A stretch of DNA of 64,000 bases, taken from assembly GCA_965205545.1 (NCBI GenBank), contig OZ242170.1, positions 1,649,149-1,713,148 on the forward strand, given 5' to 3'. Position 1 is the first letter of the stretch, and each line of letters opens with the position of its first letter. Both the position numbers and the translations under genes were made by a program. The notes beneath the pieces are model-generated. The model was not told the DNA's origin and searched no databases. It saw nothing but the letters and a program-made list of their open reading frames with translations. The stretch comes from Candidatus Azotimanducaceae bacterium. GTDB lineage: Bacteria > Pseudomonadota > Gammaproteobacteria > Pseudomonadales > Azotimanducaceae. Positions 1-24,049 of the stretch are shown one piece after another.

Positions 1-636
1 AGATGAGGTGTCTGCGAGCCACTCGCCTTGGTAGCGGGGGAACATGTAGTCGCCCATGTCGTTCATTATCTGAACACCCTTTACGACAGGATAGATTTGC
101 AAGACTTCTTGGACCTTCTGCACAACCGTTGGCCAAGCAGCTCCCCACATGCTGCCGGATGTATCAATCACGAAAATCACATACTCGCTGTCCACAGTGA
201 TTCCACCAATGACATCGTTCTTTCGAACATAATCAATTCCCAAAAGACGTATCATCTCATCGGTTAGGGATTGCTTTGCTCGAGCGAGGTCTGCCTGTTG
301 CTCTTCCTGCTCCTCCGTGATTCTTCTGACTGTATCGTATTTGCTTGTTAGTTCGACAAGCTCCTCTTGCAATTCCAATTGACGCAGCAGCTCTTGCTCA
401 ATGTTGTCCTCAGTCTCGATTTTTGTACGTTCAAGGATTGCCGTTTCTCCGAGAATCTTCTCTATCTCCTCTTGACGCTTGGCTATCTGCGCCGCGAGAT
501 CTTCGAGTGAGATCTCCAATATGGTTGGCAGACTGATCTTGGTGATCATCAGCAACATGATGATTGCACCGAACCCGCAGCATATGACATCCAAGAAGGC
601 AAGGCTAAGCTCATTCCCTTCACGTCGTCGCCTCAT
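1..636 (-). CDS. ExbD/TolR-like membrane anchor + coiled coil + VWA domain protein (paralog of the next gene; C-terminus lies beyond the window edge)
   Basis: Absent from the ORF track because it runs off the window. I translated the minus strand from the ATG at 636-634: MRRRREGNELSLAFLDVICCGFGAIIMLLMITK, then a long E/Q/L-rich heptad-like stretch, then VIFVIDTSGSMWG (DxSxS MIDAS). The ATG overlaps the TGA of the upstream gene (ATGA at 633-636). Confidence 0.75.
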   Translation of the reverse strand, partial: MRRRREGNELSLAFLDVICCGFGAIIMLLMITKISLPTILEISLEDLAAQIAKRQEEIEKILGETAILERTKIETEDNIEQELLRQLELQEELVELTSKYDTVRRITEEQEEQQADLARAKQSLTDEMIRLLGIDYVRKNDVIGGITVDSEYVIFVIDTSGSMWGAAWPTVVQKVQEVLQIYPVVKGVQIMNDMGDYMFPRYQGEWLADTSS

Positions 637-1721
637 GGCCAGTCCTCCGACGGGGCCATGAACGTTCCGGAGGTAATGTGTGCCAAATTCCAATACGACC
701 CCGCCGCGAACGGATCGCCCTCAAGAGGCAACATGATGACGTTGATGGGGATTCCAGCGGGTAGCGACTCGACCGAACGCCTGAACATGGCTAAGCGCTG
801 GCGTCCGTCCACCACCGTGCGCCGGGAAGTTCGGTTTTCCAGGGTGGGGAGACCGTCTGTTATCAGGAAAACGTTGTCAGGAACTGGCTTCATCTCGGAT
901 ATGGTTACGAACAACTGTTGCAAGTTGGTTCCTTCTCTTGGAGGCTTGTTGCGCAATGAGTCAATTGCTTCGTGGACCGCATCCGTATCCGTCGCGGGAT
1001 GCCACTCTCCCAGCCCGACCACAAATTCAGTTTCGTTGTTGTACCTGACTATTTGAAAACTGCTGTCAACCGGAATGTTGGCGACCAACCACTCTGTAGC
1101 GTCTACTGCCTGTTTCCACTTCGGTGCATCCAACTGCCGGGGGACTGGCATGTGCATTCGTCTTCTTATGTTCACAAGCTCTGCATCCAGCATGCTTGCG
1201 GAACTGTCGAGCGCAACCAAAATGTACCGCCCGCCCATGTAAAGCCCCGTCAAGTATTGTCTATCGCCCTCTCCTTCGATGGCAATGACGTCCGGCCCAC
1301 GTTCGGTTTCCTCACGCTCCTTGAGGAGTTCTACTTCCTCCTCTTGAGTTTCTATCTCCGAACGCTCTCTCTCAATCGTCTCGCTTTGGTCGAGTGCGAT
1401 CTTCTCGATTTCTTCGAGCGCTTCTTCTTTTTCCTCCACTTCTTCCTGCAACGAATCAACTCGTTCGCGTGCTTCCGCAATGCGGAGCGCTAATTGTGCG
1501 ACTATTTCACGCAATTCAGCGAGGTCTTGCTCGCCTTCCCGCGCTCGATAATCAAGCAGTCGCGACTCCGCTAATTGATCGCGGTTGATCGTGTCAATTT
1601 CTTCCTCGGTTTGATGATTGATAATCAGAAATATCATCACCACGGCGCCAAATCCGCCCGCCATGACATCCAGAAACGACAACGTAAATACATTGAGTGG
1701 ACGTTTCCGCGATCTAGCCAT
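633..1721 (-). CDS. ExbD/TolR-like membrane anchor + coiled coil + VWA domain protein
   Basis: 362 aa. The N-terminus RKRPLNVFTLSFLDVMAGGFGAVVMIFLII matches the ExbD/TolR pattern (basic residues, then (I/L)N(I/V)..L..DV(M/L) with an Asp in the helix). About 110 aa of E-rich coiled coil follow. The VWA domain has YILVALDSSASM (DxSxS) and FLITDGLPT. Confidence 0.8.
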   Translation of the reverse strand: MARSRKRPLNVFTLSFLDVMAGGFGAVVMIFLIINHQTEEEIDTINRDQLAESRLLDYRAREGEQDLAELREIVAQLALRIAEARERVDSLQEEVEEKEEALEEIEKIALDQSETIERERSEIETQEEEVELLKEREETERGPDVIAIEGEGDRQYLTGLYMGGRYILVALDSSASMLDAELVNIRRRMHMPVPRQLDAPKWKQAVDATEWLVANIPVDSSFQIVRYNNETEFVVGLGEWHPATDTDAVHEAIDSLRNKPPREGTNLQQLFVTISEMKPVPDNVFLITDGLPTLENRTSRRTVVDGRQRLAMFRRSVESLPAGIPINVIMLPLEGDPFAAGSYWNLAHITSGTFMAPSEDWP

Positions 1722-2985
1722 CTTCGCTAACCGCTATAAGCTGATACGCAATGGAGCCTGCCACAATGGAGTCGCCAACTTTGGTTGCAGCCTCTCCGTG
1801 GATACGTTCACCGTTAAGCAACACGGTTGCGTGACTATCGGGAACGACAACGAACCCGCGCGCGTTCTTCTTGATGGTAAAGTCGGTCGTGCCATCGCGT
1901 TGGTTAGTAGCGGCAAATTCACTACCAATTGCATGGGCAATGGATTGCCTCAATACATGAGTGGCATCGGGAAGCGCATGCGCTTCGTGATGAATTTGAG
2001 AGCGTGCCTTGTTTACATGAGGAATTTCAACGTGAAGAGATCTGGCATTCGAGTCACCCTTGGAAGCCCCAATTCTCGAGGCTGCCATTGCTATGTCACT
2101 GACCGTGCAAGGAAAGCACTTGCTGCCCTGGTCGTTGAACGCCTCCACGACTCCTGGCAATGCGGCGGAGTGTTCGGAGAGCAACACTGGGCAACCGTGA
2201 TCTATGAGAGAGGACACTTCTGCCACTCGCGCATTTGCTGCCGCCACTAGCTCGGAGCGCGAAATCTCAGCTTGCCTTGAGTTTCTCTGGTGCTCCACGT
2301 GCACAACATGGATATCTTCGTCCAGCGCCACGAATTCCAACATCTGATCGAAGACCTGCTGTTCGGTTCCAGCAAATTTTCTAGGATCGAAACGAGCAGT
2401 ATCAAGCAGCTTGTCCGCAGCTATCTTTATCCAGGAATTTATCAACGGTAGCAACCCGAACCGCGGAGCAATGCTCGTACCTCCCTTAGATACAACTTTG
2501 CCGACCTGAAGTTGAGTCACAACACTTCGGTGAAGCCCTATTTCTACAAATGCACACTTCTCGCCAACGTCGATGCTGGCTCCTGCTGCGACTCCTCGGT
2601 CGACAAAATCCAAAACATTGAGCTCCGCCTGCACCGCAATGCCGTAAAACAACGCCAACTGACCATTCGACATGTCGCTGGGAACCGCTACCCACAATTG
2701 GTCCTCGCTTGAAAGCCCGCTTTGCTCCTTCATGGCAAGGAGTTGTTGGAAGACTAGGTCGGCCTGGGTCTCAACGGCAAAGCCTGGTGGGTGGACCGCG
2801 CTCTGATCCATTCGCTGCCAGTACTGACTCTGCTCGCGATCCGGATAAAGCTTGATTTGTGCTAGAGCTTCGCTACCAAGGACCAAGGACTTTGGTTCGA
2901 CAAGCGCTATCCCAGGTTCGTCGTATCGGACCTCGCCGTCTTTGCTCAGCCTAATACTGGCATCTGCAACATCAAGAATCCACAT
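1714..2985 (-). CDS. Cytoplasmic actin/Hsp70-fold-like protein with C-terminal FHA-like domain
   Basis: The ORF extends to 3036, but the ATG at 2985-2983 lies 1 nt after the TAG of the MotA-like gene (2989-2987), and MWILDVADAS is a sensible N-terminus. ILDVADAS, VAVPSDMSNGQLALFYGIAVQAELNVLDFVDRGVAA and FVEIGLHRS resemble degenerate Hsp70/actin phosphate-1, connect and phosphate-2 segments. The C-terminus FVVVPDSHATVLLNGERI...VGDSIVAGSIAYQL is FHA-like. No TM segment or signal peptide is present. Confidence 0.6.
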   Translation of the reverse strand: MWILDVADASIRLSKDGEVRYDEPGIALVEPKSLVLGSEALAQIKLYPDREQSQYWQRMDQSAVHPPGFAVETQADLVFQQLLAMKEQSGLSSEDQLWVAVPSDMSNGQLALFYGIAVQAELNVLDFVDRGVAAGASIDVGEKCAFVEIGLHRSVVTQLQVGKVVSKGGTSIAPRFGLLPLINSWIKIAADKLLDTARFDPRKFAGTEQQVFDQMLEFVALDEDIHVVHVEHQRNSRQAEISRSELVAAANARVAEVSSLIDHGCPVLLSEHSAALPGVVEAFNDQGSKCFPCTVSDIAMAASRIGASKGDSNARSLHVEIPHVNKARSQIHHEAHALPDATHVLRQSIAHAIGSEFAATNQRDGTTDFTIKKNARGFVVVPDSHATVLLNGERIHGEAATKVGDSIVAGSIAYQLIAVSEDG

Positions 2986-2986
2986 G

Positions 2987-3784
2987 CTAACGAACCTGCA
3001 AGTGCCTAAGCAAGTTTTCGTCGCACCACGCTTCAACGGCGATTACCGTCTCCTCTTGATAGCGCTGCAGCTGATATACGAAAAACATAATCACAATGCT
3101 GATGACCAAAGCCACAAAGGTCGAATTGAACGCCACGCCAAGACTTTCCGTTACCCCTGCAATGTCGCCTTGAACTGCCTCGTATGCGTGCCCTAGCGCT
3201 TCTCCAATACCGCGAACTGTACCGATGAAGCCAATGGACGGTATGGCCCAGGCAATATAGCGAATCATTGCCAATTCGCTATCCAACCTGTCTGCTTCAG
3301 CCTCGCAAACGGAGCGAACGACTTCAGAAACGTTTTGCACTGCCTGGGTGGACTCAAACCTTTGAAGTGCAGTCAAAACGGTTCGCGATATAAGCAAATC
3401 TTGCGCCTTGGCAGGAAGAGATTGAATGGGTCGCATGTAGCGACGAGCATCCTCCGGCAATACACTGACCCCATCGCCCACCTGCAGGACGTTGCGATCA
3501 AGCAATCGGCGTTCAGCCATGGCCGACATCGCTTTAGTCCCCATGATTGCAAAGGCCCAAAACATCAAAATGAAGCAAGTTTCCTGCTCGTAGTCTCGAA
3601 GCGTTACGAATAGCGACCGCTCAGGCGTGAAGGTCTCGTCGTTTTGAAGACGTTCGGCGCGATCGGCAAGAATTTCGTTAGCGGTTGGGCGAATTACGCT
3701 CGCGTACACCAAATGCACAACTAGTATGGAGATTAGCAACGCAATTAGTTGGGTTAGTAGCGACGATGTAAAGCGTCCTTTCAT
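2987..3784 (-). CDS. MotA/TolQ/ExbB family proton-channel protein
   Basis: 265 aa with an N-terminal TM and the family signature region IAWAIPSIGFIGTVRGIGEALG...GVTESLGVAFNSTFVALVISIVIMFF (compare the IAP.LGLLGTV.G ... AL.TT..GL consensus). Confidence 0.85.
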   Translation of the reverse strand: MKGRFTSSLLTQLIALLISILVVHLVYASVIRPTANEILADRAERLQNDETFTPERSLFVTLRDYEQETCFILMFWAFAIMGTKAMSAMAERRLLDRNVLQVGDGVSVLPEDARRYMRPIQSLPAKAQDLLISRTVLTALQRFESTQAVQNVSEVVRSVCEAEADRLDSELAMIRYIAWAIPSIGFIGTVRGIGEALGHAYEAVQGDIAGVTESLGVAFNSTFVALVISIVIMFFVYQLQRYQEETVIAVEAWCDENLLRHLQVR

Positions 3785-3793: not shown

Positions 3794-4189
3794 CTATATA
3801 TCCACTGGAAAAGGCACGGCAATATCTTCAGATATCTCCTCCGTTGGTATAAAGATTTCTGCAATACCGTCCTCGTCGGATCCTTCTTCTTCAGATTGAG
3901 CTGATTCTTCATTTGACGAATCCATTACAGATTGGTTCTCTGCGTCAGTTTGCGCCGGATTAAGCCCCTCAGGTGCTGGCTTAGCGTTAGCATCGTTGTC
4001 CGTTTCCTTATTACCTGAAGAAGAGTCTGCCTCCTCCGAAGACACAGTCTCCTCGGAATTCGACGTCTCCGCTTGATCGGTCTGAGAGAGAACCACCGCT
4101 GAATTCAGCAAGAGGAATACAAGTGGCAGATTCACCAGCGCAAACCTAGAGAGACTGAAACTCTTGCGCTTTCTGCTTCTATTCTGCAT
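3794..4189 (-). CDS. Small secreted acidic low-complexity protein
   Basis: The start is taken at the internal ATG 4189, just after the stop of the upstream gene (4179-4181). It has a signal-like segment FALVNLPLVFLLLNSAVVLSQ, then a D/E/S-rich region, and ends in EIFIPTEEISEDIAVPFPVDI. Confidence 0.6.
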   Translation of the reverse strand: MQNRSRKRKSFSLSRFALVNLPLVFLLLNSAVVLSQTDQAETSNSEETVSSEEADSSSGNKETDNDANAKPAPEGLNPAQTDAENQSVMDSSNEESAQSEEEGSDEDGIAEIFIPTEEISEDIAVPFPVDI

Positions 4190-6230
4190 AGCGAGCAATG
4201 CGGAAACCAACGTCTTGCCTTCCATCTATCCCATAGTCTCGAAACGACAATCTCACATCCGTAATCGTTCCATTCAAATAACTTGAACCACGAATCACGT
4301 GATATTCGCCTTCGTTCGGTCCCAATGCGTTCACAACGGTGTTCGCCTCGGGCACGGTGTAGAAATCATGCATCCATTCGGCGACGTTTCCGCCTATGTC
4401 AAACAAACCCTTAGAGTTTGGTGCAAATGTCCCAACGGGCGCTGTTACTGTGTAGTTGTCGTTGTAATCGAACAGAATTCTGCTGACTACATGCTGTGCG
4501 GCCCGATCAGCATAGTTTCCGTGTCGTGTTGGAGGCGGGAGCTTTTCACCCCAAGGAAAGTGCAACAACTCTGGCTCTCCCTCAACGTGACGCGCCGCCC
4601 AGGACCATTCTGATTCCGATGGTAGGCGGTAGCCGAGCGCACTGGGGTTGAATCCGACAACTTTTGCCCCACGCAATTCGTAAAAGGGCTCTAGGCCTTC
4701 CTTTTCTGAAAGATAATTGCAATACAAGGCTGCTTCCGTCCAAGACACGTTCACAACAGGCTGTTCGTCCTCATTGAGGGATGACCCCTGATAGGTCCCA
4801 GAATCATGTCCCGGTGCAAATTGGCGGAAATGCCCATTGGTAACTTCTTGAATTCCCATGTAGAAAAGTCTGTTCTGGTTCACCGTGCGAAAGACTTCAT
4901 TCGCGCGACGGCCTGGTTGTCTTCGCGAAGCCCCCATGCGAATGGAAGTGGGCTGGAGCAACACAATTTCCTGACCATCCGGGGATGTGCGAACTTGCCG
5001 CAATGCTTCCAATCGGGCTTCCTCCAGCGTCAATAGGCGAACACGCAAATTTTGGGCTAGTCCCGGTTGAATGGTTATGTGGTTGCTGTATCCCGCGTAG
5101 CCTTCCTTGCGTAGTTCCACCGAGTGGTCCACCGCATGTAGAGCAAACGACTCGTTGCTGACGCCAAGTAGATTGCCATCCACCCACACTTCGACACCGT
5201 CTGGTTCCGTCGTTACTATCAACGTCCCCATGACTTTTTCTAGAACGAGATCTAAAGTCTCGTGTGCACCGGGATCGACACTTATGTCGCGATCCAATTG
5301 CTCATACCCAACTAGCAATACGCTCAAGGAGTGCGCCTTCTGCGGCTCGACCGTTGCTGTTAGAGGGGTAACGCCTTTGAACTCTCCGTCGATGCTTACA
5401 CTAGCTCCGGGTGGCTCTGACGTCATTGTCAGTACGCCCCCCTGCAGCTCGAGCTCAACAGGTTCTAGCTGCACGACCTGCCCAGCTTCTACATAGATGA
5501 TGTCCGTCCAATCTGCATAGCCGAATTTCCTAATCGAAATCGTATGCTCTCCGGCAAGAACCTCGACCGGGCCAGGGGTAACAAATCCTGAATCGGCACC
5601 GTCAATGTGTACAGTCGCCCCTTCTGGATCCGTCGGCATAGTGACCATTGCCCAATTTGGGCTCAATTCGACATTGATCGATTGCTCTTGGCTCATGCCC
5701 TGGATCGTTTCCTCAACGGACTTGGATATGTAGCGTGGCGCAGTAAACTCAAACACCGTATTACCTGCTGCAATATCCAATTGCAGTGGAGTCTTGCCAT
5801 TTGGCACACCATTGACAGAAACTGCAGCTCCAACGGGAACTGAAGTGATCATCACGTCGCCTGGCAAGCGGACGAGATTCAACTCGAACACTTGGTCGCC
5901 TTGGGGAGCGACCTCAATAGGTAGTGACAACTCGTGGTAACCGTCAGCTCGAGCAATTACCGTGTATTCGCCCTGACGCATGAGAAAAGTCTCCGGCGTA
6001 CGAATCACAATGCCACCAGAGACGTCTACTTGCGTATCTGCAACGTTCGGCTCAAACCTAACCGCCTTTGCGGTGAACAGAAACCACAGCACGAACCCAG
6101 CAACCACGACAACGAACAGCGTTAACACTTGCAGCCATGGAACTAGCCTGATGCGACGGGGCGGCCGTGGTGGAGTTGGCTTGAATTCCTCGGGACGAAG
6201 AACTGGAGGCGCGTCGGTGTCCATGGGCAA
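4179..6230 (-). CDS. Single-pass membrane protein with about 5 PEGA-like repeats and a C-terminal FGE-sulfatase (SUMF1/GldK-like) domain
   Basis: 683 aa. It has a Pro-rich N-terminus and the TM segment LVPWLQVLTLFVVVVAGFVLWFLFTA. Repeats of the type TSVPVGAAVSVNGVPNGKTPL, TDPEGATVHIDGADSGFVTPG, SEPPGASVSIDGEFKGVTPL and TEPDGVEVWVDGNLLGVS are present. The C-terminus carries the FGE-family hallmarks GLFDIGGNVAEWMHDFY and HVIRGSSY...GFRIAR. Confidence 0.8.
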   Translation of the reverse strand: MPMDTDAPPVLRPEEFKPTPPRPPRRIRLVPWLQVLTLFVVVVAGFVLWFLFTAKAVRFEPNVADTQVDVSGGIVIRTPETFLMRQGEYTVIARADGYHELSLPIEVAPQGDQVFELNLVRLPGDVMITSVPVGAAVSVNGVPNGKTPLQLDIAAGNTVFEFTAPRYISKSVEETIQGMSQEQSINVELSPNWAMVTMPTDPEGATVHIDGADSGFVTPGPVEVLAGEHTISIRKFGYADWTDIIYVEAGQVVQLEPVELELQGGVLTMTSEPPGASVSIDGEFKGVTPLTATVEPQKAHSLSVLLVGYEQLDRDISVDPGAHETLDLVLEKVMGTLIVTTEPDGVEVWVDGNLLGVSNESFALHAVDHSVELRKEGYAGYSNHITIQPGLAQNLRVRLLTLEEARLEALRQVRTSPDGQEIVLLQPTSIRMGASRRQPGRRANEVFRTVNQNRLFYMGIQEVTNGHFRQFAPGHDSGTYQGSSLNEDEQPVVNVSWTEAALYCNYLSEKEGLEPFYELRGAKVVGFNPSALGYRLPSESEWSWAARHVEGEPELLHFPWGEKLPPPTRHGNYADRAAQHVVSRILFDYNDNYTVTAPVGTFAPNSKGLFDIGGNVAEWMHDFYTVPEANTVVNALGPNEGEYHVIRGSSYLNGTITDVRLSFRDYGIDGRQDVGFRIARYAE

Positions 6231-6236: not shown

Positions 6237-7799
6237 CTAAATCTGCTCTTCGCAGACTATGCGGACGGGTTGCATGCCTCGTCCCACGTTGATTGATTTT
6301 CGGACATCCACCCAACCATCCCGGCTACCAACAAGCTGATAGCGACCGGGGCGCAATTGGATTTCGCGTCTTTCAAACAGTCCGAGCTTGCCGCGGGTGC
6401 TCAATGTCACCTCAGTTGCATTGTCCGACACCAAGACAACTGTGAGGTGTTGAGAAGCAAAGTCAATCAAGTTAGCAAACTCGGTCAAAGATCGATCAAA
6501 ATCTGTACTGTGACCACGAAGTTTCTCGGCTCGTTCCAATAACTGAACAGATTTGCTCAGTTCGTCGTCAGCCGACAGTACACCAGGGTCACCGAGCACG
6601 ACATGCATTTGCTCATTGACCGTGAGGATTTCGAACACACGCTCCTTTCCCTTGATCGCGAAGTCCAATTTGGCGTCAATCTCTAGAACCTCGTCGTAGG
6701 TGGCAAGTGCGGCCTCGAGCTCAAGCAGATCCTCCTCTTCTTGGGCACGTGTTCGCAGTTCCTCAATTCGAAGGGCGACTCTTGCCAAAGCGCTCTGCTG
6801 CAATCCGGTTGTCGCAGCCACGTTACCTGGCTGTCTTTGCAACACTTCGTTGAACATCCGATCCGCCTCGTCGAAGTCATCCTGATTGAGCGCTTGGTGT
6901 CCCTGCGAAAGTAGCTCATTTAGCTCCTCTTCAGCCTTTGACTGATTGATTCGCGAACGTCGGTCGTCGACACCGGGCGTTAGAGAATCCAGATCCTCAA
7001 CCTGGGACAGGTACGCAAGCGCATCGTCCCACTGACCTCTCAAGACCGCACGGTCACTTTCGCGTAACAACTCATTGATCTTGGGTAGTCGGGCGACGCG
7101 CTGCAATCCAATTTGTGCTGATTGAACGAGTGGCTTGATGGCAGAAGCGTTTTGAAACGCGACTTGAGCTGCCTCTGTGTCTCGATCGTCCAACGCTGCA
7201 ACTCCCGCTTCCATCCATTCGTCGAACTCGGCGTTTACCGTCTCCAACAGTTGGCCTAATTCTTCTAAGGCGGAATTGAACTTGCTCAGTGCTGCATCGT
7301 ACTCTCCCTGCCCAAACAGTATGTCGCCTTCATTCGCCTTGGCCAAAATCGCGTTATAAAGATCCCTATGCGATTCCGAACCATATTGGTTTCTTTCAAA
7401 CGTATCCTGTAACGCGCTAAATTCCTCGAGATCTGACTCGGCCTGCGCTCGAGCGCGGTCCAACTGGGACTCCAAAAACGGCGCAATGCTTTGGTCGTTA
7501 GCGTTTGTCTCGTTCCGGTCGCTCGGTCGCTCGCTTGTACCGTCCCTTTCGTTGCTACCCGTCCACACCCGCGCTATGTCTTGCTGTTGAATCCACAAGA
7601 ACATGGCGGCAGCACAGACTACGACAAAGATTCCAGCGATAAACTGCTTCTGCCGTGAAGTTACACGAAACTGTGAACGGCGCCGAGTCGGCTCGTTTGA
7701 AGCAAGTTGGGGAACTACCGGTTGTATTTGAACCGGCTTCGCTGCACTATCCGTTGTCTTGGAAGAATTCTTCAGTGACGTTCTCCCCAGACTCATCAA
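6237..7799 (-). CDS. Membrane-anchored TPR/coiled-coil scaffold protein with a C-terminal beta-rich domain
   Basis: 520 aa with the TM segment FIAGIFVVVCAAAMFLWIQ and long helical-repeat regions (GEYDAALSKFNSALEEL, GQWDDALAYLSQV, DDFDEADRMFNEVLQRQPGN). The C-terminus LRPGRYQLVGSRDGWVDVRKSINV is PEGA-like. Its 5' end overlaps the 3' end of the upstream lipoprotein gene by about 50 nt, and there is no alternative in-frame start downstream of that overlap. Confidence 0.7.
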   Translation of the reverse strand: MMSLGRTSLKNSSKTTDSAAKPVQIQPVVPQLASNEPTRRRSQFRVTSRQKQFIAGIFVVVCAAAMFLWIQQQDIARVWTGSNERDGTSERPSDRNETNANDQSIAPFLESQLDRARAQAESDLEEFSALQDTFERNQYGSESHRDLYNAILAKANEGDILFGQGEYDAALSKFNSALEELGQLLETVNAEFDEWMEAGVAALDDRDTEAAQVAFQNASAIKPLVQSAQIGLQRVARLPKINELLRESDRAVLRGQWDDALAYLSQVEDLDSLTPGVDDRRSRINQSKAEEELNELLSQGHQALNQDDFDEADRMFNEVLQRQPGNVAATTGLQQSALARVALRIEELRTRAQEEEDLLELEAALATYDEVLEIDAKLDFAIKGKERVFEILTVNEQMHVVLGDPGVLSADDELSKSVQLLERAEKLRGHSTDFDRSLTEFANLIDFASQHLTVVLVSDNATEVTLSTRGKLGLFERREIQLRPGRYQLVGSRDGWVDVRKSINVGRGMQPVRIVCEEQI

Positions 7800-9015
7800 T
7801 GCCTGCTTCCGACTCTAGATCTCCTTCAACGTCCTCGTCTGGAAGACCTAGGTATTCAAAGTAAAGTTGCTTGAGTGTTTCGCGTGCTTTAAGAAACTGT
7901 TCGGAGGCAGTTCCTTCTAGTCTAATCGTGGAATTCTCCAACTCGATCGTGTGTGGATCGATCTCCTTGGCCGCGATAACTCCCAACTCTTGAAGCGTCG
8001 AGGCATGGATTTTCACGTTTGCGCGGTTTTGAATTCCGCCGATTATCTCTGTAGCTCCGCCGATTACCGACGCGTAACCGGCATATTCAGTAATCGTGCT
8101 GCTACTTCGTTGCGCAACGGCTCCACCTAGGACCATCATCGTCCCTGCTATTAATCGACTCCGAGACTTGTTGCGTTCCTCTCGAAGATCAATTGCCTCG
8201 GTGTACGTGCCTTCTCGCCAGTTTTGGTACGGAATTCGCATGTCCCACGCAAAGCGGGAAAAGTATTCTGCAAGTGTGTCTATTACAAGAAACTCGCGTT
8301 CTCGGACTTCACGAACTCGCCTCATGTTTGGATCATTCGACGCAGGCAAACGCACCACCTCGTATTCCTCATCCTTAGTCTCGGCGACATAGTCAGCGAA
8401 GGCATCGGGATTTATGTCGCGGGCGTAGCGCATTAGCGTAGTCAGTCGAATGTCTTCAATTTCCTCGATCGAAAGCTCTTCGACATATTCGAGCATCTCA
8501 TCTGCAATCAATCGGTAGGTTGTTTGAAACGGTTCAACATTTGAGGCAATTTCGAGAGCGTAGTGATACTTGCTAGCCAACGTTTCGTAGACTCGCTCGA
8601 ACCAGATCTCGCCTCGAGAGTCCTGCACACGCACTGCCAAAACTTGTCGCTCACCGTCAGAATGCAGAATGCCGCCGGTTACTAACACATCCACAGCATA
8701 GGTGGCTTGAGGCAGCACCCTAACGGCTCCCCAATTCCCCGTGGATTGCAACAAGTCCGTCGCGTAGCTGGAAATGTAGTTTGCTTCAGCTCTTCGTATC
8801 TCGGGAGTGATATTCCGAGTAACTAGATCGTCGTAGGCTTCGGGAATATTGGAGTCGAATACTACGACTCCCACGTCAAGCAAAAGGTCATCTGGCAGCG
8901 CGCGGTCCGAGGTTCTGGGTGCTTGGGTGTCAACAACACGCAGAGTCGTGGACGAGCACCCAAAAAGAAACAAGCAAAGTGAGAGCCCGATGTAGAGAAC
9001 ACTCGCTTTCTTCAT
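7747..9015 (-). CDS. Lipoprotein of unknown function
   Basis: The start at ATG 9015 overlaps the TGA of the upstream gene (ATGA at 9012-9015). It has the lipoprotein signal MKKASVLYIGLSLCLFLFGC (lipobox LFGC), a Gly-rich hydrophobic segment IAGTMMVLGGAVA...VIGGATEIIGG, and an acidic C-terminus. Confidence 0.7.
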   Translation of the reverse strand: MKKASVLYIGLSLCLFLFGCSSTTLRVVDTQAPRTSDRALPDDLLLDVGVVVFDSNIPEAYDDLVTRNITPEIRRAEANYISSYATDLLQSTGNWGAVRVLPQATYAVDVLVTGGILHSDGERQVLAVRVQDSRGEIWFERVYETLASKYHYALEIASNVEPFQTTYRLIADEMLEYVEELSIEEIEDIRLTTLMRYARDINPDAFADYVAETKDEEYEVVRLPASNDPNMRRVREVREREFLVIDTLAEYFSRFAWDMRIPYQNWREGTYTEAIDLREERNKSRSRLIAGTMMVLGGAVAQRSSSTITEYAGYASVIGGATEIIGGIQNRANVKIHASTLQELGVIAAKEIDPHTIELENSTIRLEGTASEQFLKARETLKQLYFEYLGLPDEDVEGDLESEAGIDESGENVTEEFFQDNG

Positions 9016-10097
9016 TTGAGACCCTCGATGTATGTCTCGTAGTCTTCCCAAAGTTTCTCTTTCAGCTCTGGATCCTCTTCTGCCATGGCGGCCTCGCGCA
9101 ATTGTCGGGCGTACACTTCCTTGTCTCGCGCATCAGGCGTGTCCGCTACTGTATGCATAGTCGGCGGAAGATTGGGTGTGCCATCTCCTTTGTTTGTTGC
9201 TTCGCTGACGGCTGAGTTCTCTTCGCCAACGCCCGAGTCGGAGGATTCGCCTTGAGACTCCGATGTTGTCTCCTCGGCCTGCATATCTGCGGGACCGCCT
9301 GCGGCAGCAGCGCGGTCATTGGCGCGAGCCAAATCATCGCTACGTTCCTCCATGATTTCGCCGTCCAAGACACCTAGTACGCGTCTCAATTCCTCATCCT
9401 CAGGATCGAGTCCGCGATTATCACCCAACTCCTGATCAAACTCTCCTGGCAGTTCTCCAATGCCGCTCTGTTCGTCTTGCGTCGCGAGCCCACCCGGTTC
9501 AGGCAACTGATTGCTAATCTCCCAACCGCCGCTGGCTTCATCGTCGCTAGTTCCGGGGATTGGTGAACTTTCAGGCAATCCGCCCTCGCCAGCCTCATCG
9601 CCTTCACTAGCCTCATCGCCTTCGGGTTCGCCAGTACCCATAGGTCCGCCGGTTTCCAACACACCTGATTCCGTTCGATCCGTTCCGTCTTGAGGAGTAC
9701 CTTCGCCCTCACCCTCTTCTTGATCTTGATCAGCTACACCGGTTGACGGCATTCCGGGCAAATCTGCATCCGTTGGCCCGTCAGTGCTCGTCGGCAGCGA
9801 TGGAAGAGATGGCATGCCAGTCGACGAATCGGTACCGGGCAAGGTAGTGCTTGGTGGAATTGGCAACGGGGGACTGCTTGTAGGTGATGGAATCGGCGAA
9901 GGGATGGATGGTAGACCCGATCCCTGTCCCTGTCCGGTTGATGTGCCACCTGATGACGGTGCACCTGATGTCGATGGCGGCATCGAGCTTTGTGACGGAC
10001 TTGGCAATTCGATTGTTGGAAAGTCTCGAGGCGTACTGGATAGACAGCCACTTAGCAGTGCGATTGCGACGCCAACTGCTAGCAATCGACTTGCCAT
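9012..10097 (-). CDS. Lipoprotein with P/S/T-rich and D/E/G-rich disordered regions
   Basis: The ORF extends to 10187, but MASRLLAVGVAIALLSGC from ATG 10097 is a classical lipoprotein signal with lipobox LSGC. It is followed by PSIPSPIPSPTSSPPLPIPPS and EGDEASEGDEAGEGG low-complexity tracts, and a short helical C-terminus EDPELKEKLWEDYETYIEGLK. Confidence 0.65.
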   Translation of the reverse strand: MASRLLAVGVAIALLSGCLSSTPRDFPTIELPSPSQSSMPPSTSGAPSSGGTSTGQGQGSGLPSIPSPIPSPTSSPPLPIPPSTTLPGTDSSTGMPSLPSLPTSTDGPTDADLPGMPSTGVADQDQEEGEGEGTPQDGTDRTESGVLETGGPMGTGEPEGDEASEGDEAGEGGLPESSPIPGTSDDEASGGWEISNQLPEPGGLATQDEQSGIGELPGEFDQELGDNRGLDPEDEELRRVLGVLDGEIMEERSDDLARANDRAAAAGGPADMQAEETTSESQGESSDSGVGEENSAVSEATNKGDGTPNLPPTMHTVADTPDARDKEVYARQLREAAMAEEDPELKEKLWEDYETYIEGLK

Positions 10098-10287
10098 CAA
10101 AAACGGCTTGCTGCTGCAATGCTCTTTCGCCGCACTGCCTAGCACACTCAACCCTGATTTATTTGTGTTGAGAGAAACGATGTCCATTTCAGCCTGTTCC
10201 CGCCATCAAGGCTTGTTTTCTCCTCTACTACAGAGACACTGTCTCGGCAACAAGGTTCACTTTAGTGCAATGCATAGTGTCAATAAC

Positions 10288-11589
10288 CTACTCTTCGGCA
10301 CTTGAGTCCGAAAAGAAGATGTATTCATGCGTCAATATTACTCCTTCCTGCGGCTTCCTCTCTCCACTTCGAACGACTGGGCGGTACCTAGCCTCTCGCA
10401 TAGACTCCAAAAATAGCTCAACAAATCGATCGTCAGGCACAACAGATTCGACGGTTACTTCCTCGACCAATCCCTCTGCGTCGACGTTGAACATCAATTC
10501 AATTCTGCCCTCTAAAGGCTCCACTAGACTCGCTTGAGGATGCGCCTGCGGACTTCTTGACAGAGGGTAGTACAGCGCCACCGGTTGGCTGAATTCCTTG
10601 CTTAAAAACTCTGCACTAAGGTTGCTGGAGAACATCTCCCATATGTCCCTATACACAATGGTGGCTAGTTCAATCTTGTCGAACAGCAAGTACCAGTCCG
10701 CCAAGTCCAATTTGGCGTAAGCTAGGGATTCAGACGAGCTTTCTGCTCGCTCCTGCTCGATTTCCACCAGCTCTTTGAGAGCTTCCTCTCCAGGTGCAAA
10801 CCGGTTAACTGTGGCTTTGTAAGTTGGAACGCCCTCATCAGTCGATGCCGACTGATCAATGAACTCCTCGCTCACAACGAGCTCTCCCGGAGTCGTGAAT
10901 CGCTCATGGCGATAGCTCATAGCCAGTCCTTTCAATGCTCGAATGTTAAAGGGATCTGTCCGCTCAAGATTGGTCTCTGTAATCTTCAGTGCATCGTCAA
11001 ACATTCCTCGTGCTGCAAATACGTTGCGCACTTCCAAATACCACTCCGCCAATTCGAGCAAACCTGGCAGAAGATCAACCGAGTCCTCGCCATATGTCCG
11101 CACGTTTACGTTGTATGCATACTCATGGCGGTCCGTTGCGCGTCCAATTTGGCCGAGCTCGTGGTAGGTGTCAGCTTCCCGGTATACGACGTCAAGCTGC
11201 TCGACGGAATGCAGGCCATGTGCTAGTCGCGAAACATGGCGTGCACGATCATAGGTGTCAAGGGCCTCCACATACTCGCCGTTCTTGCGCAATCCGTCGC
11301 CCAGCAAAAGAAGAGGCTCGACAAGTATCGGATCGAAACGCGACCCTTCTTCTTCCAATTGATCAATGAAGTTACTTGCAAGTTCTATGGCTTCGCCGAT
11401 TTCATTGGAAGCCAAGCGAGTTCGAATGGCCTCCAAGGGGTCGCTGGGTGTGCTGGGCATATCCTGCTGACCAACATCGTTGCCACCATTCTCATCACCC
11501 ATGCATGCAATTCCAACGAGCAGCACAGCCAAGGCAACAAAAGAGCTCGCCGTCCGTTGGACAGTCAAGCCAATGTGTTCAATCTTCAT
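10288..11589 (-). CDS. TPR-repeat protein with C-terminal TonB_C-like domain (first gene of the operon)
   Basis: The ORF extends to 11673 and the start is uncertain; I chose M29 (MKIEHIGLTVQRTASSFVALAVLLVGIAC, a signal or anchor). It has TPR-like helices (NGEYVEALDTYDRARHV, GQIGRATDRHEYAYNV). The C-terminal roughly 80 aa, GRIELMFNVDAEGLVEEVTVESVVPDDRFVELFLESMREARYRP, resembles the TonB C-terminal fold. Confidence 0.65.
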   Translation of the reverse strand: MKIEHIGLTVQRTASSFVALAVLLVGIACMGDENGGNDVGQQDMPSTPSDPLEAIRTRLASNEIGEAIELASNFIDQLEEEGSRFDPILVEPLLLLGDGLRKNGEYVEALDTYDRARHVSRLAHGLHSVEQLDVVYREADTYHELGQIGRATDRHEYAYNVNVRTYGEDSVDLLPGLLELAEWYLEVRNVFAARGMFDDALKITETNLERTDPFNIRALKGLAMSYRHERFTTPGELVVSEEFIDQSASTDEGVPTYKATVNRFAPGEEALKELVEIEQERAESSSESLAYAKLDLADWYLLFDKIELATIVYRDIWEMFSSNLSAEFLSKEFSQPVALYYPLSRSPQAHPQASLVEPLEGRIELMFNVDAEGLVEEVTVESVVPDDRFVELFLESMREARYRPVVRSGERKPQEGVILTHEYIFFSDSSAEE

Positions 11590-11752
11590 TAGTTTGAAAT
11601 TCACAACCCGTTTGTTAGCTTTCAACCGCATCCCATTCATGAGATCCAAACATCGATATAAACTAACTCTCATTCGTAGCTAAGTGGTTCTCTCAGTTGA
11701 CTCGTTCGATAGTGTGTTTGACCCGCAAATGCTTGGAAATGTCTTCTAGTCC

Positions 11753-16782: not shown

Positions 16783-18594
16783 CTATCGGTCCAGAGTCAA
16801 AGCGGTTAGAAAGGCCTGTTGCGGAATTTCGACTTTCCCAATCTGTTTCATCCGCTTCTTGCCTTCCTTCTGCTTTTCAAGCAGCTTCTTCTTGCGAGTC
16901 ACATCGCCACCGTAGCACTTGGCGGTTACGTTCTTTCGCAAAGCCTTTACGGTTGTTCTTGCCAGGACCTTGCGGCCAATCGCTGCTTGGATGGCAACAT
17001 CAAACATCTGTCGCGGAATTACTTCCTTTAGTGCAACGGCTACTTGACGCCCCCGTGATTGCGCAACATCTCGGTGAACAATTACGGCCAAGCTATCCAC
17101 CCGATCCTCATTTATAAGAATGTCAAGACGGACAAGAGGTGCAGATTCAAAACGATGAAACCCGTAGTCAAGGGAGGCATAGCCGCGACTAACTGACTTC
17201 AATCGATCGAAAAAGTCGACCACCACCTCCCCCATAGGAATGTCATAGGTCAATGAGACCTGGCTACTGGTCATTTGCATGTTCCTTTGCACGCCTCGAC
17301 GTTCTATGCAAAGTTCGATCACACTTCCAAGATGCTCTTGAGGAACAAGAATGTTGACGCGAGCGATGGGTTCCCGTATTTCCACCAAATCCGAGACTTG
17401 ATCCAATTGCGAGGGGCTATGGATTTGAACGGTATCGCCACTCTTCCGCAACACTTCGTACACCACGGACGGAGCGGTAACGACAACATCTAGCTCGTAC
17501 TCCCTTTCCAATCGTTCTTGGACAATTTCCATGTGCAACATTCCAAGAAATCCACACCGATAGCCGAACCCAAGAGCATCTGAGTTTTCGCTTTCGTATT
17601 GAAGCGAAGCATCGTTTAGTCCAAGCTTTTCCAAAGCCCTGCCCAGTGCCTCGTAGTCGTCGGGATCACTTGGATACAAACCTGCGTAGACTTGCGGTTT
17701 CAGTCTCTCAAATCCGGGCAAAGGAGCTGCGGGCGCTCTTGCGGAAACTAGGGTATCCCCCACTGGGGCTCCATGGATATCCTTGATTCCTGCTACAACG
17801 TAGCCCACGTCACCTGCAAGCAACGACTCTCTCTCCTCTCGACGAGGAGTGAACACTCCGATTTGCTCGACCGCAGTCTCACGCCCAACTGAACAGGACA
17901 CTATGCGATCACGCAATCGAATAGCTCCTTCGAAAATTCGCACCAAGGAAACAACCCCAGCGTAACGGTCAAACCAGGAGTCGATAATCAGCGCACGCAA
18001 TTGATCGTAGAGCTCGCAATTCGGCGCCGGTATCGCGTGCACGATGAGTTCCAGTAGATCATCGATTCCTTCGCCCGTCTTTGCACTAATTCCCAATATG
18101 TTGTCGGTTTGTAATCCGATCAACGACTCGATTTCTCGCGTGGCTTGATCAGGATCTGCCTGGGGAAGGTCCATCTTGTTCAACACAGGAATCACTTCCA
18201 AGCCTTGTTCGATGGCGGCATAGCAGTTGGCAACGGACTGCGCCTCAACACCTTGTGCGGCATCGACGATTAGCAGCGCTCCTTCGCACCCTGCAAGCGA
18301 GCGGGAGACCTCATAGCTGAAGTCCACATGGCCAGGCGTGTCAATGAAGTTCAGGTAATACGTCAGCCCATCGCGAGCCTCATAGTTCAGTGCCACGCTT
18401 TGGGATTTGATCGTAATACCACGTTCACGCTCGAGATCCATCGAATCCAAAACTTGATCCGCCATCTCTCGATCTGACAGACCGCCACATCGTTGAATTA
18501 ATCGATCCGCGACAGTTGATTTGCCGTGGTCAATATGAGCAATAATTGAGAAGTTGCGAGTTCGAGAGACTCGCGACTCAAGGGATTCAGTCAC
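16783..18594 (-). CDS. lepA: Translation elongation factor 4
   Basis: 603 aa. [21 protein letters not shown] and [14 protein letters not shown] show end-to-end LepA-like organisation. Confidence 0.97.
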
Positions 18595-18613
18595 GTAGGA
18601 ACGCAGATGTTGC

Positions 18614-20107
18614 CTATGTTGTTGAGCCGTATCGCGCCGACACGTGGTTGATGAAGGCCTTACTGTCCAACGGCCTGCCGGTTACGGATTCGATCAATTC
18701 GAAACTTGGCGTCAATTGTCCACGTGAATGGATGTTCGCTCGCTGCCAAGCCAACACCCTGTCGAATCTTCCTGCCGCAATGTCTCCCTCAATGTCTGGA
18801 ACATCGCGCAGGAGTGCCTGGTAAAGTTGCGCAGCTGTAAGCGCTCCCAAGGTGTAGCACGGAAAATAGCCAATCAACCCGGCAAACCAGTGTACGTCCT
18901 GCATGCAACCATCGCGAAAATCTCCATTCAATTCAATACCGAAAGATTCAAGCATGGCTTGATTCCATGCTGATGGAATGTCTTCAACACTCAATTGATC
19001 GTTCAAGATTGCCTTTTCTAGCCGATAGCGCAATGCAACGTGTAGCGGATAGGTAGTCTCATCAGCTTCTACACGTATTTTTCCGCGTTCCACTTTTCTC
19101 ACAGCGCAAGCCAAATTCTCGACATTCCAGGAAGTTCCATTGCCACGGACGTTTAAGCACTCCTCAATGAGTGGCTTGGCAAAACTCAAGAATGCATCTC
19201 CACGGCATATCTGCATCTCCACAAAAAGGGATTGGCTTTCGTGGATCATCATTCCCAATGAGTGGCCCACTGGCTGATCACTCCATTCCGATGGGAGCCC
19301 CTGCTGGTACAACGCGTGACCTGTCTCATGAAGAACCGCGTACATGGATTCCAGAAAGTCGTCGGCCCCGAACCTTGTTGTAATGCGAGTGTCCGTGTGC
19401 TCGCCGCAAGTGAAGGGATGATGGCTCGTGTCGATTCTTCCTCGACCGAAGTCGAAGCCGATGGGTGTCATGAGTCGACGTGCAAGGTCTAGCTGCCGTG
19501 CTGGGGAATAATCTCCTTGGAAATTAGGTGCTTGCGTTTGCGAAGCCAACACGTTTTCTACGAAGTTTGGCAGAAAATCCACTAAATCGGAGAACACTGG
19601 GTCGATGAATTTCGCGGATAGTCCGGGTTCATACTCGTCCAAGAGTGCGTCGTAGGGATCCATATCTAAGCTATCGCTGAGCAAGGATGCACGCTTCTTG
19701 GTGAGATTGACTACCTCAGAGAGAAGCGGCGCTACTGCTCGCCAATCGTTTTCCTTTCGCTTTTCGCGCCATTCCTGTTCACAAGCCGATGTTGCTCTGG
19801 AAAGAGCAACAACCAGGTCTCCTGGGATTGCCGTAGCCCGCTTACGCTGATGTTCGATTACACGCACGTTTGCTATGTCCCATTCGTTGGTCAGCCCGGA
19901 CTGCTTGACCGACTCCACGAGGTCTCCCATTTCCTCGCTCACCAACATTCCGTGTACGACCTCTCTCAAGACAGCAAGTGACTCAGCCCTTCGGGCTCCA
20001 CCGCCACGAGGCATCATCACCGCTTCGTCCCATGAAAGATACTGAGACGCGTGATTAATGTTGTGAATTGCGCGGAATTTATCGCGAAGTTTCTCTACAT
20101 GGGACAT
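18614..20107 (-). CDS. M32 family (Taq-type) metallocarboxypeptidase
   Basis: HETGHALYQ (HExxH), [19 protein letters not shown] and MQDVHW are the M32 signature blocks. Confidence 0.9.
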
Positions 20108-20323
20108 TGGACGTCTAGCTTGACCTGCGTGAAGGAGGTGGGCGAAAAATTATAGTTATCGCTGTCGATTCGAATTGGCGCGCAAGACCGACTTGAACTG
20201 ACTCTGGGTTGTGCGGGAAATAGGAAACCGTACGGTCCAACCTAGAGCTGAAATCGTTGCTCTATCGCTGTCTCGACAGAAACATCACCCACAATTGGAT
20301 TGAGACCGGAATTAGACCAAAAA

Positions 20324-21265
20324 CTAGCGTCGCCGCCTCGGCGGCAGCGTTAGGACATTGAATCCTGAACTGGCAGCGGCCTCCTGATTCTCTGTGTCGG
20401 AATCCGAGCCCACATTGACGCTCAATACATCGAGAGGATCGTAAACGGATTGCTCCTGCCGTGGTGTCCACTCTGAAATCATTTGCTGTGCCTGCTTCTG
20501 AATTTCTTCCACCTCAAGAAGCGTCTGATCCACAGTAACTTGATCTATACCTGCAAAGTCTTCAATGGTGGGTACGTCGTCGTCAGGTTCCGCCGCTAGC
20601 GCGCCTACGTCTGCAAGTGGCACATCCGTATCCGCAGCAGGTGTCGCATCCGCGTCAGCAACCATTGGCGCACCAGATTCGCCACCTTCATTGGCGTCAA
20701 CATTGTCACCTTCTACGACCTCGGGCTCTGCAGGTTCGGCCGTTACAGCATCGAGGATTTCTTCGGCAGGAGCTTGCGAATCGACACTGCTTAACTCCTC
20801 CGCACCGGTCACTTCTGCTTCCTCAATCGGAAGAGTTGGTTGATCGGCTTCAACTATTGGTTCGGCAACAGGTGCCATTCGCTGCTGTGCCTGATTAGGT
20901 GTGGCGTCCACATTCCATGACTCGTCCGATCCTTGCACAAACCAGACGTCCTCCCAACCGGCTTCGCGTGCACTGTCCAAAAATGAAACGCCATCCATTC
21001 CAGTAGCCACTTCGACTACTACCCTATAAACAGTCGAGCCTTCCACAGTGCCAGGCTTAACCTTGGCATTGACGCCGAGCTTCGATGATGCCCAAGCGGC
21101 CTCGGAATCCGCACGTTCTTGCGTAGTCCAGCTGCTGTAGACCACGAAACCTTCCGCCAATACGGATGTTGGCACCACAATCAACACTACTGCTGCCAAT
21201 GCGCAAATGAGTACCCTTCCCATGAATGAGACCTTCAAATGTTCCGTTTCGCTACTCATTTGCAA
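20324..21265 (-). CDS. Secreted or anchored SPOR-like domain protein with an acidic disordered tail
   Basis: It has the signal/anchor segment VLICALAAVVLIVVPTSVLAEG. FVVYSSWTTQERADSEAAWASSKLGV...STVYRVVVEV...AREAGWEDVWFV resembles a SPOR repeat. The remaining roughly 200 aa are A/E/D/V/P-rich. The start may be the internal M at 21223. Confidence 0.55.
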   Translation of the reverse strand: MQMSSETEHLKVSFMGRVLICALAAVVLIVVPTSVLAEGFVVYSSWTTQERADSEAAWASSKLGVNAKVKPGTVEGSTVYRVVVEVATGMDGVSFLDSAREAGWEDVWFVQGSDESWNVDATPNQAQQRMAPVAEPIVEADQPTLPIEEAEVTGAEELSSVDSQAPAEEILDAVTAEPAEPEVVEGDNVDANEGGESGAPMVADADATPAADTDVPLADVGALAAEPDDDVPTIEDFAGIDQVTVDQTLLEVEEIQKQAQQMISEWTPRQEQSVYDPLDVLSVNVGSDSDTENQEAAASSGFNVLTLPPRRRR

Positions 21266-21313
21266 ACTTACCTGATTGCATGACGCTATTCTAACTGTGG
21301 GACATCCCGTAGT

Positions 21314-21685
21314 TTACCCAAGAATTCGTACTCTCGGTCGCAGCATTACGCTGAACCGACGGCTTCGGCAATACCCGATAGCCGCGATTGCGGCTAGTGC
21401 CAATGCCACCAGAGCAAGCGACCAAGACTCAAGAAAATAGAAAACTGCTAAAGCGCAAAATAGCGGAAACCCTAACGCTATGGCTGTGCCTAGAGCTAGC
21501 GAGGCTGGCGACGTTTCCACTTCCACATCTGCACCAATGGACAGTTTCTCGTCCAACCAGAGTTCGACGTCTCGATTTGTAATCAATCTGCAGGAACCCG
21601 GACAACCATCGCAATACTTGCGTGCAAAACGGACCTTCGATTTGCCGTTTTCCGATGCGATAACGGTTCCACACCCAAGCAGCAT
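21314..21685 (-). CDS. rseC: Sigma-E regulatory protein RseC/MucC family
   Basis: GTVIASENGKSKVRF..YCDGCPGSCRL is followed by two TM helices, and the gene sits after rseB. Confidence 0.8.
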   Translation of the reverse strand: MLLGCGTVIASENGKSKVRFARKYCDGCPGSCRLITNRDVELWLDEKLSIGADVEVETSPASLALGTAIALGFPLFCALAVFYFLESWSLALVALALAAIAAIGYCRSRRFSVMLRPRVRILG

Positions 21686-21703
21686 AGTTGCAGGGCTAGG
21701 AGT

Positions 21704-23274: not shown

Positions 23275-23373
23275 AGCGATTCTTACACTCTACCCATAAA
23301 ACATTCAACCCCTAGTTGGCAGTTTGCCGGCAGGATTGACCCATTGTACACTCCACATTCGTGAATGTTCACC

Positions 23374-23949: not shown

Positions 23950-24049
23950 GACACTTCCCGTTCGGCGAGACCGTGTGACTGACACGGTAAGTAATTGTGC
24001 AATGTTGTATTGTAAGAACATGAACCCAATGACCGGGGTCACTTGAACC

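Follow-up and report, generated by a model that had tools for sequence, protein, structure and literature searches.

How are two adjacent genes to be understood whose products each join an Asp-bearing membrane helix to a long coiled coil and a VWA domain? The genes, here called VWA_A and VWA_B, lie at the left end of a 64,000-nucleotide stretch of the genome of a Candidatus Azotimanducaceae bacterium (assembly GCA_965205545.1, contig OZ242170.1, positions 1,649,149 to 1,713,148), and "the window" below means this whole stretch. An earlier reading of the letters alone, the sequence-only reading, had proposed that the pair could plug a MotA-like pentamer as a heterodimer and project metal-dependent adhesion domains across the periplasm on a rigid stalk. 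That overall reading is supported by computation, through conservation, folds, gene linkage and the lack of a conventional partner: VWA_A and VWA_B are probably the two inner (axle/plug) subunits of a 5:2 proton-driven motor of the TolQ/ExbB/MotA type. The idea thus appears to be right, yet it is not new, because the same design has been described independently (Mol Biol Evol 2025;42(6):msaf138; PMC12204202). The part of the finding that may be new is the extended conserved gene cluster in which the pair is embedded.

The 5:2 motors MotAB, ExbBD, TolQR, GldLM and ZorAB power flagella, nutrient import, envelope integrity, gliding/secretion and phage defence. A further widespread class, of some ~2,600 clusters at 50% identity, would broaden what such motors drive. 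Its distinctive property would be that the inner dimer itself bears VWA heads, predicted to bind ligands and carried by a coiled-coil shaft. The locus also amounts to a parts list: two Asp residues, two metal-ion-dependent adhesion sites (MIDAS), one motor gene and a few candidate periplasmic or outer-membrane partners.

Two tandem paralogs

All genes at the window's left end are on the minus strand. The features of the pair, with residue numbers of the proteins, are these:

633..1721, minus strand: VWA_A, 362 aa, predicted transpore-type helix, coiled-coil stalk and VWA head (open reading frame, Pfam, AlphaFold2 model, Foldseek)
1620..1688, minus strand: VWA_A transmembrane helix, residues 12-34, with Asp18 at 1668-1670 and GFGA at 1644-1655
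1302..1610, minus strand: VWA_A coiled-coil stalk, residues 38-140 (heptad periodicity, AlphaFold2 helix)
648..1244, minus strand: VWA_A VWA domain, residues 160-358 (conserved MIDAS, model, fold matches)
1194-1208, minus strand: VWA_A MIDAS motif D172-x-S174-x-S176 (DSSAS, residues 172-176)
927-929 and 855-857, minus strand: VWA_A distal MIDAS residues T265 (in GTN, 924-932) and D289 (in TDG, 852-860)
1..636, minus strand: VWA_B, the N-terminal 212 of ~332 aa, cut at the window edge (translation, profile match to VWA_A)
541-609, minus strand: VWA_B helix, residues 10-32, with Asp16 at 589-591
232-537, minus strand: VWA_B heptad stalk, residues 34-135
151-165, minus strand: VWA_B DTSGS, residues 158-162

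VWA_A begins MARSRKRPLNVFTLSFLDVMAGGFGAVVMIFLIINH, with FLDVM at residues 16-20 (1662-1676). VWA_B begins MRRRREGNELSLAFLDVICCGFGAIIMLLMI, and its ATG at 636 falls in an ATGA overlap with the VWA_A stop. The distal MIDAS residues of VWA_B lie beyond the window and were read from full-length homologs (for example, L001:11077-12075). The sequence-only reading had placed the first MIDAS motifs exactly, at 1194-1208 in VWA_A and, in the partial gene, at 151-165.

Two sets of loci were used for comparison. One consists of 80 related loci from species-representative genomes, which are Pseudomonadales-type metagenome-assembled genomes of Gammaproteobacteria with A proteins 42-66% identical to VWA_A of the window. 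The other is a distant branch of four loci in unrelated genomic contexts, whose A proteins match VWA_A of the window (phmmer E=2e-49) with far lower scores than do those of the close relatives. This branch takes in Acidiferrobacterales-type genomes, and the distant VWA_A representatives with names belong to Candidatus Eutrophobiaceae and Acidiferrobacterales. A search for VWA_A homologs returned 2707 sequences, and an exhaustive profile search gave 2571 clusters at 50% identity (E<=1e-3), 436 of them at E<=1e-30; the long family representatives are the 123 listed ones of at least 330 residues each. A tblastn search of a plasmid collection with VWA_A gave no match.

Are the two genes truly related, as had been claimed of them? 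The family profiles of VWA_A and VWA_B align over 301 columns (hhalign probability 99.6%, E=1.7e-23, 19% identity). Because the profiles align in this way, the two are, as judged by profile comparison, genuine and old paralogs. The arrangement is also fixed, with VWA_B after VWA_A in all 73 related loci that leave room for it.

The Asp-bearing helix

The central claim concerned the membrane helix, in which an Asp in an FLDV context was said to resemble the Asp of E. coli TolR and ExbD. Each protein indeed has a single hydrophobic segment, at its N-terminus, with the Asp in that context (Asp18 in VWA_A, where hydropathy peaks at residues 16-34, and Asp16 in VWA_B). The comparators were read from E. 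coli MG1655, in which TolR D23 stands in EINIVPLLDVLL and ExbD D25 in DINVTPFIDVML. In each of the four, the 19-residue segment of highest hydrophobicity starts two residues ahead of the Asp, which therefore occupies position 3 of the hydrophobic core throughout, and the likeness seen in the letters holds to that extent.

Conservation of the Asp among homologs had been set beforehand as the result on which the idea would stand or fall. The residue is kept in 79/80 VWA_A and 78/78 VWA_B copies of the related loci, in the context S-F-L-D-V-[MI]-x-[CG]-G-F-G-A. Of the 123 long representatives, 101 match the motif. Most of the 22 that do not match lack part of their N-terminus or have a wrongly assigned start, and at least one of them (P0232, FLDAITCGFG) has the Asp in a context that the pattern missed. 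Such conservation goes well past what chance would produce, and the outcome favours the idea. Among 90 homologs, the VWA_A helix residues F16, D18, G23, F24, G25 and A26 are invariant. The N-terminus is in fact the best conserved part of the protein, with a mean column identity of 0.80 over the N-terminal 36 residues, compared to 0.67 for the VWA domain and 0.51 for the stalk.

The coiled-coil stalk and the VWA heads

The region following the helix had been described as an E/Q/L-rich heptad region of about 100 residues, and unbroken heptads are found there in both proteins. Hydropathy power at a period of 3.5 residues is 66 for VWA_A and 58 for VWA_B, against a mean of ~7 for shuffled sequences, with none of 1000 shuffles as high. 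In VWA_A the heptads stay in one register from residue 38 to 135, and in VWA_B from ~36 to 120. In the AlphaFold2 model of VWA_A (overall predicted local distance difference test score, pLDDT, 79), residues 23-140 form one continuous helix, and the sequence matches to this region, both in Pfam and when the VWA_A profile is compared with the PDB, are to coiled-coil proteins only. At ~0.15 nm per residue, such a stalk would measure ~15 nm. The spacing from the helix Asp to the MIDAS is fixed at 154 residues in A and 142 in B in 64/78 loci, and is shorter in one distant locus (141 and 134, respectively). The stalk lengths of A and B appear to co-vary, with a correlation of 0.91, and we rejected this as evidence: the correlation is driven by a handful of loci, with too few independent changes.

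The VWA domain of VWA_A is recognised in just two ways, by a weak Pfam match and by comparison of folds. The Pfam match is to VWA_2, at E=2e-5 and 25.6 bits, slightly below the 27-bit cut-off; the full-length VWA_A profile finds only coiled-coil proteins in the PDB, with no VWA domain among them. The fold comparison is much clearer. Residues 160-358, modelled with a pLDDT of ~90, match nothing but VWA domains in a Foldseek search of the PDB (probability 1.0, E ~3e-8), and the matches include 4fx5, ITIH1, TFIIH p44, BatB (3ibs) and CLCA1. In the model, beta-strands 166-172 and 283-288 each end at a MIDAS motif. None of the 90 homologs departs from D172, S174, S176 or D289, and at least 90% of them keep T265.

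A Pfam scan of VWA_B gave no match, and its profile-profile match to VWA_A spans the whole VWA domain. Homologs of VWA_B keep DTSGSM and the distal Asp, with a Ser (in NSS) at the position of the MIDAS Thr. A VWA head with an intact DxSxS is thus found in both genes, as had been proposed, with DSSAS in A and DTSGS in B. The downstream TDG, which had been assigned to both, is present in VWA_A only; in full-length homologs of VWA_B the distal Asp lies in FGDD. From these motifs, the heads would be expected to bind metal, and their ligand may be sought among the partners encoded in the cluster.

The proposed MotA-like partner

If the two helices plug a pore, there should be a channel protein to provide it. 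The candidate is encoded a short distance upstream of VWA_A:

2987..3784, minus strand: MotA/TolQ/ExbB-like proton channel subunit, 265 aa (Pfam MotA_ExbB, E=4e-16)
3218-3220 and 3119-3121, minus strand: predicted pore threonines T189 and T222 of this protein

The protein is closest to TolQ, with a weak match to the NCBIfam TolQ model. Residues T145 and T178 of TolQ (T148 and T181 of ExbB) are the pore threonines that surround the Asp of ExbD/TolR. T189, T222 and P182 of the MotA-like protein align with TolQ T145, T178 and P138 and are invariant in 71/71 copies; T189 and T222 likewise correspond to the two ExbB threonines. The gene is found upstream of VWA_A in 74/76 related loci with enough sequence and in 4/4 distant loci.

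The conventional inner subunit is missing from these loci. Searches by phmmer with E. coli queries revealed no ExbD or TolR in the 80 related loci or in the 64-kb window, and MotB matches were limited to four ORFs that lie outside the cluster, at the extremities of four loci; no ExbD Pfam match was recorded in the four distant loci. Nor do VWA_A and VWA_B show an OmpA/MotB signal by Pfam or phmmer, and no MotB/PomB-type peptidoglycan-binding domain was encountered in them. The expectation of a MotA-like partner nearby, with the periplasmic ExbD/TolR domain replaced by other modules, is borne out by these results.

A model for the motor and the points that weigh against it

How might these parts work together? 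The best explanation is that the N-terminal helices of A and B lie next to each other within the pore formed by five MotA-like subunits, where Asp18 of A and Asp16 of B, opposite the Thr189/Thr222 ring, would load and release protons. Proton cycling would drive rotation of the pentamer relative to the dimer; whether the dimer or the pentamer turns is not readable from sequence. A parallel A:B coiled coil of ~100 residues would stand in for the periplasmic domain of ExbD/TolR, acting as a shaft or tether that positions the two VWA heads deep in the periplasm. There the MIDAS heads might grip partners encoded in the cluster (the candidates, described below, are the PEGA-FGE protein, the TPR protein, the lipoproteins and the acidic FPVDI tail), and the proton-motive force would be converted into torque or pulling at the outer envelope. 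We infer the insertion into the pentamer, an A:B heterodimer as opposed to two homodimers, the coupling to protons, the rigidity of the stalk and the biological output.

Several results argue against this model, or at least against part of it. Most concern the ancestry of the helix. Searched against PDB sequences, a 45-column profile of 40 helices from A and B detected neither ExbD nor TolR nor MotB, the sole match being NDUFB4, by chance. A Pfam scan of the 40 N-terminal fragments and of full-length VWA_A and VWA_B gave no match to PF02472, TolR or MotB. When the helices were aligned by hhalign with 14 ExbD/TolR sequences (from E. coli and plasmid-borne genes), SFLDVM fell on PFIDVM in the expected register, at a score of only 15.8 and a probability of 2.8%, and 4 of 200 column-shuffled controls reached that score. 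Homology of the helix to ExbD/TolR is therefore statistically not demonstrable, and descent from ExbD cannot be claimed from sequence. Other points concern single residues and loci. The position of ExbB E176 is occupied by Val in the MotA-like protein. In one locus (L053) the Asp of VWA_A is replaced by Ser (FLSVM), with the Asp of VWA_B kept. Finally, two loci (L076 and L077) retain the rest of the cluster with no MotA-like gene between the PEGA-FGE and Hsp70-like genes.

The label "ExbD/TolR-type" given to the helix in the sequence-only reading must accordingly be divided: it stands for position, topology, Asp and partner, and is not demonstrable for sequence homology. VWA_A and VWA_B are predicted to act like ExbD/TolR in those four respects, and they are not demonstrable members of the family.

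Relation to previously described systems

The 2025 paper predicted from genomes a second family of helix-tethered vWA proteins, termed "TPH-vWA", in which the helix bears an Asp (PMC12204202). These proteins show a close co-occurrence with homologs of tolQ, in the absence of tolR/exbD and of an SHLS motif, and are found mostly as heterologous pairs in Proteobacteria and Verrucomicrobia; in AlphaFold 3 predictions the helices lie within the pentamer of TolQ-like subunits and bring their Asp to the Thr ring (PMC12204202). The seed is from Idiomarina loihiensis, and the paper is confined to tolQ and vWA genes, notes disorder close to the vWA domain and gives no phenotype or experimental data for TPH-vWA (PMC12204202). 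The pair in the window would fit this family by its sequence features, namely an Asp helix, a vWA fold, tolQ linkage without tolR, exbD or motB in the cluster, a heterologous pair and a Thr ring, with the Idiomarina loihiensis seed compared by description only. The N-terminal place of the helix and the C-terminal place of the vWA domain, the absence of SHLS and the occurrence in Proteobacteria are likewise shared. What differs is the unbroken heptad spacer of ~100 residues, a core of seven genes (12 in the lineage of the window), and an Hsp70-NBD/FHA gene (NBD, nucleotide-binding domain) between the motor gene and the pair.

ExbD/TolR proteins (PF02472) share with the pair an N-in single-pass topology, an Asp that stands two residues inside the hydrophobic core and has hydrophobic-hydrophobic-D-V as its context, and a partner of the MotA_ExbB family with equivalent pore threonines. 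They can also occur as heterologous pairs, as with the two adjacent ExbD genes in L091 and L096. The pair in the window differs in having no PF02472 match and no ExbD periplasmic domain, in its own CGFGA signature, and in the coiled coil and VWA domain that it has instead.

Alternative explanations

The alternative that survives best, and to which we nonetheless assign a low probability, is that the helices are plain anchors. VWA_A and VWA_B would then be tethered VWA proteins of the BatA/BatB (Bacteroides aerotolerance) type, serving as a periplasmic scaffold or in adhesion, and the MotA-like protein would work with ExbD/TolR encoded elsewhere, or alone. Bat proteins, too, combine an N-terminal anchor with a VWA domain and have a TPR protein in the operon; BatB appears among the Foldseek matches to the VWA domain, no ExbD-family signal is detected in the helix, and the MotA-like gene is absent from two loci. 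A mere anchor would not, however, be expected to exceed the rest of the protein in conservation, or to contain GFGA and an invariant, buried Asp, nor does this explanation account for the linkage to the motor gene in 74/76 and 4/4 loci with the Thr ring that faces the Asp retained. Furthermore, Pfam scans of the cluster proteins found no MoxR ATPase or DUF58, and we know of no Asp-bearing helix or motor protein described for Bat operons.

Could the two proteins instead sit on the outside of the pentamer? The 2025 paper also deals with another vWA family, TolA/TonB-like, for which it notes that no deletion phenotypes have been reported (PMC12204202). If VWA_A and VWA_B were transducers of this kind, they would not be the inner dimer. 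The layout of a transmembrane helix, long spacer and globular head does resemble TolA, and cluster gene 1 ends in a weakly TonB_C-like region. Still, direct reading finds no SHLS/His motif in either helix, and the loci contain no tolR or exbD genes that could fill the pore. The fixed pair with a membrane-embedded Asp in each member, and a spacer that is a heptad coiled coil and not a Pro-rich or single-helix linker, also point to the inner-subunit reading, and we consider a TolA/TonB-like role decidedly improbable.

We give hardly any credence to a role of the cluster in defence against phages, as a Zorya-like system with a MotA-like channel at its base: the MotA-like protein does have a weak PADLOC match to ZorA (E=7e-4), but PADLOC found no ZorB/C/D, ZorE or other defence match, the chromosomal context is one of housekeeping genes (lepA, rpoE-rseAB, nadB), gene order is stable across 80 genomes, and there are no nuclease or helicase effectors, the remaining components all being envelope proteins. 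Equally hard to credit is a cleaved signal peptide that would leave A and B as soluble periplasmic coiled-coil VWA proteins, since a positive N-terminus followed by a hydrophobic stretch fits that layout but the stretch is 23 residues long, invariant across the family and best conserved of all regions, contains the conserved Asp, and is followed by INH or ITK where a small-x-small cleavage site would be expected.

The extended gene cluster and its core

The inner-subunit reading leaves the question of what the motor would act upon, and here the neighboring genes provide candidates. Gene order is common to all 80 related loci, apart from genes that escape detection or are truncated at contig ends in single loci. 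In order, the 12 genes encode a TPR protein with a weak TonB_C, a low-complexity lipoprotein, a conserved lipoprotein, an anchored TPR protein, the PEGA-FGE protein, the small FPVDI protein, the motor, a 423-aa protein, VWA_A, VWA_B, a lipoprotein and a second lipoprotein. The members within the window, other than the pair and the motor gene, are:

10288..11673, minus strand: cluster gene 1, TPR protein with a weak TonB_C-like C-terminus, 461 aa (TPR_12, E=3e-10)
9012..10187, minus strand: low-complexity Pro/Ser/Gly/acidic lipoprotein, 391 aa, accessory of the lineage (lipobox LSGC)
7747..9051, minus strand: conserved lipoprotein, ~420 aa, without known domain (lipobox LFGC)
6237..7799, minus strand: TPR protein with an N-terminal membrane anchor (transmembrane residues 52-70), 520 aa (Pfam TPR; conserved in the distant branch)
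4179..6230, minus strand: membrane-anchored protein with four PEGA stretches and a C-terminal FGE-sulfatase fold (transmembrane residues 35-53), 683 aa (Pfam)
3794..4225, minus strand: small acidic envelope protein with one N-terminal hydrophobic segment, start uncertain (C-terminus FPVDI)
1714..2985, minus strand: Hsp70-NBD-fold protein with a C-terminal FHA-like domain, predicted cytoplasmic, 423 aa (AlphaFold2, Foldseek)

The first two genes (10288..11673 and 9012..10187) are syntenic in most related loci with enough upstream sequence. The TonB_C match of the first (E=5.6e-4, 20.7 bits against a cut-off of 24.6 bits) was not built upon. The conserved lipoprotein has its lipobox in 45/52 homologs and a match in the distant branch at E=5.5e-48.

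The PEGA-FGE protein, present in 4/4 distant-branch loci, matches Pfam PEGA at E=1e-51, in four stretches, and FGE-sulfatase at E=3e-37. Catalysis by FGE uses a pair of Cys residues. The last 150 residues of this protein contain zero cysteine, and therefore its FGE-fold domain cannot carry the catalytic pair; judged from its residues, the domain probably has no catalytic activity, as in proteins of this fold of the PorK/GldK type. Orthology to PorK/GldK was considered and rejected, because the GldK model, which requires 350 bits, gives just 84 and aligns with nothing but the FGE domain.

The small envelope protein is very variable in length and sequence except for its C-terminal consensus, F.P.EeISEDfav.FPVDI. 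At the same position, the distant branch has a protein of ~55 aa ending in SPVSFPGDI (L097:9062-9229). The FPVDI/FPGDI tail could be a ligand for the MIDAS heads.

The 423-aa protein, encoded between the motor gene and VWA_A, has no Pfam match. Its AlphaFold2 model (pLDDT 88.6) matches the nucleotide-binding domains of Hsp70, DnaK and BiP in Foldseek at E=4e-16, and its phosphate-binding motifs appear, by eye, degenerate. Residues 365-415 give weak profile matches to FHA domains, and FHA is the sole Pfam domain recorded for a distant homolog (P0138).

Which of these genes belong to the machine proper? The distant branch lacks the Hsp70/FHA gene and the downstream lipoproteins, and it keeps the lipoprotein, the TPR protein, the PEGA-FGE protein, the ~55-aa protein, the motor, A and B. 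This retained set therefore defines a 7-gene core, with the Hsp70-NBD/FHA protein an accessory of the Pseudomonadales-type lineage only.

There is an architectural parallel to the core in the type IX secretion system, and it is a parallel of layout only. GldLM/PorLM with PorK/GldK-PorN likewise combine a proton motor, a dimeric single-pass subunit, a long shaft and a non-catalytic outer module of the FGE fold. The differences are considerable, in that Pfam and NCBIfam scans of the cluster found no GldL, GldM or GldN, there are no PorN homologs, and the protein with the FGE fold has, in this cluster, an inner-membrane anchor and PEGA domains and is nearer to true FGE (1e-16 among PDB sequences) than to PorK (2e-9). 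Perhaps the seven core genes encode a trans-envelope machine of Gammaproteobacteria, driven by protons and so far unrecognised, laid out in parallel to PorKLMN with motor, dimeric shaft and FGE-fold outer module. The MIDAS would then clamp an acidic ligand, either the invariant EDxxxxFPVDI tail or an outer-membrane lipoprotein, with cytoplasmic regulation by the Hsp70-NBD/FHA protein in Pseudomonadales. We offer this larger proposal tentatively and consider it rather unlikely to be correct as it stands.

Other features of the window

The chromosomal context at 16783-25687 is ordinary, with lepA, an rpoE/anti-sigma/rseB-like block and nadB, and a mobile element or defence island is therefore disfavoured.

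Two further sets of tandem paralogs occur in the window. On the plus strand are three ORFs of ~1150 aa each (35060-38521, 38603-42112 and 42188-45652) with almost no Pfam signal, two of which show a sub-threshold Golvesin_C match, at the C-terminus only. On the minus strand, three small secreted-protein paralogs (26900-27727, 27891-28670 and 28772-29701) share the common block YYY..RQYKKAFPYLLASAKRGFKMAQA..., and two of these three have weak matches to Sel1 repeats.

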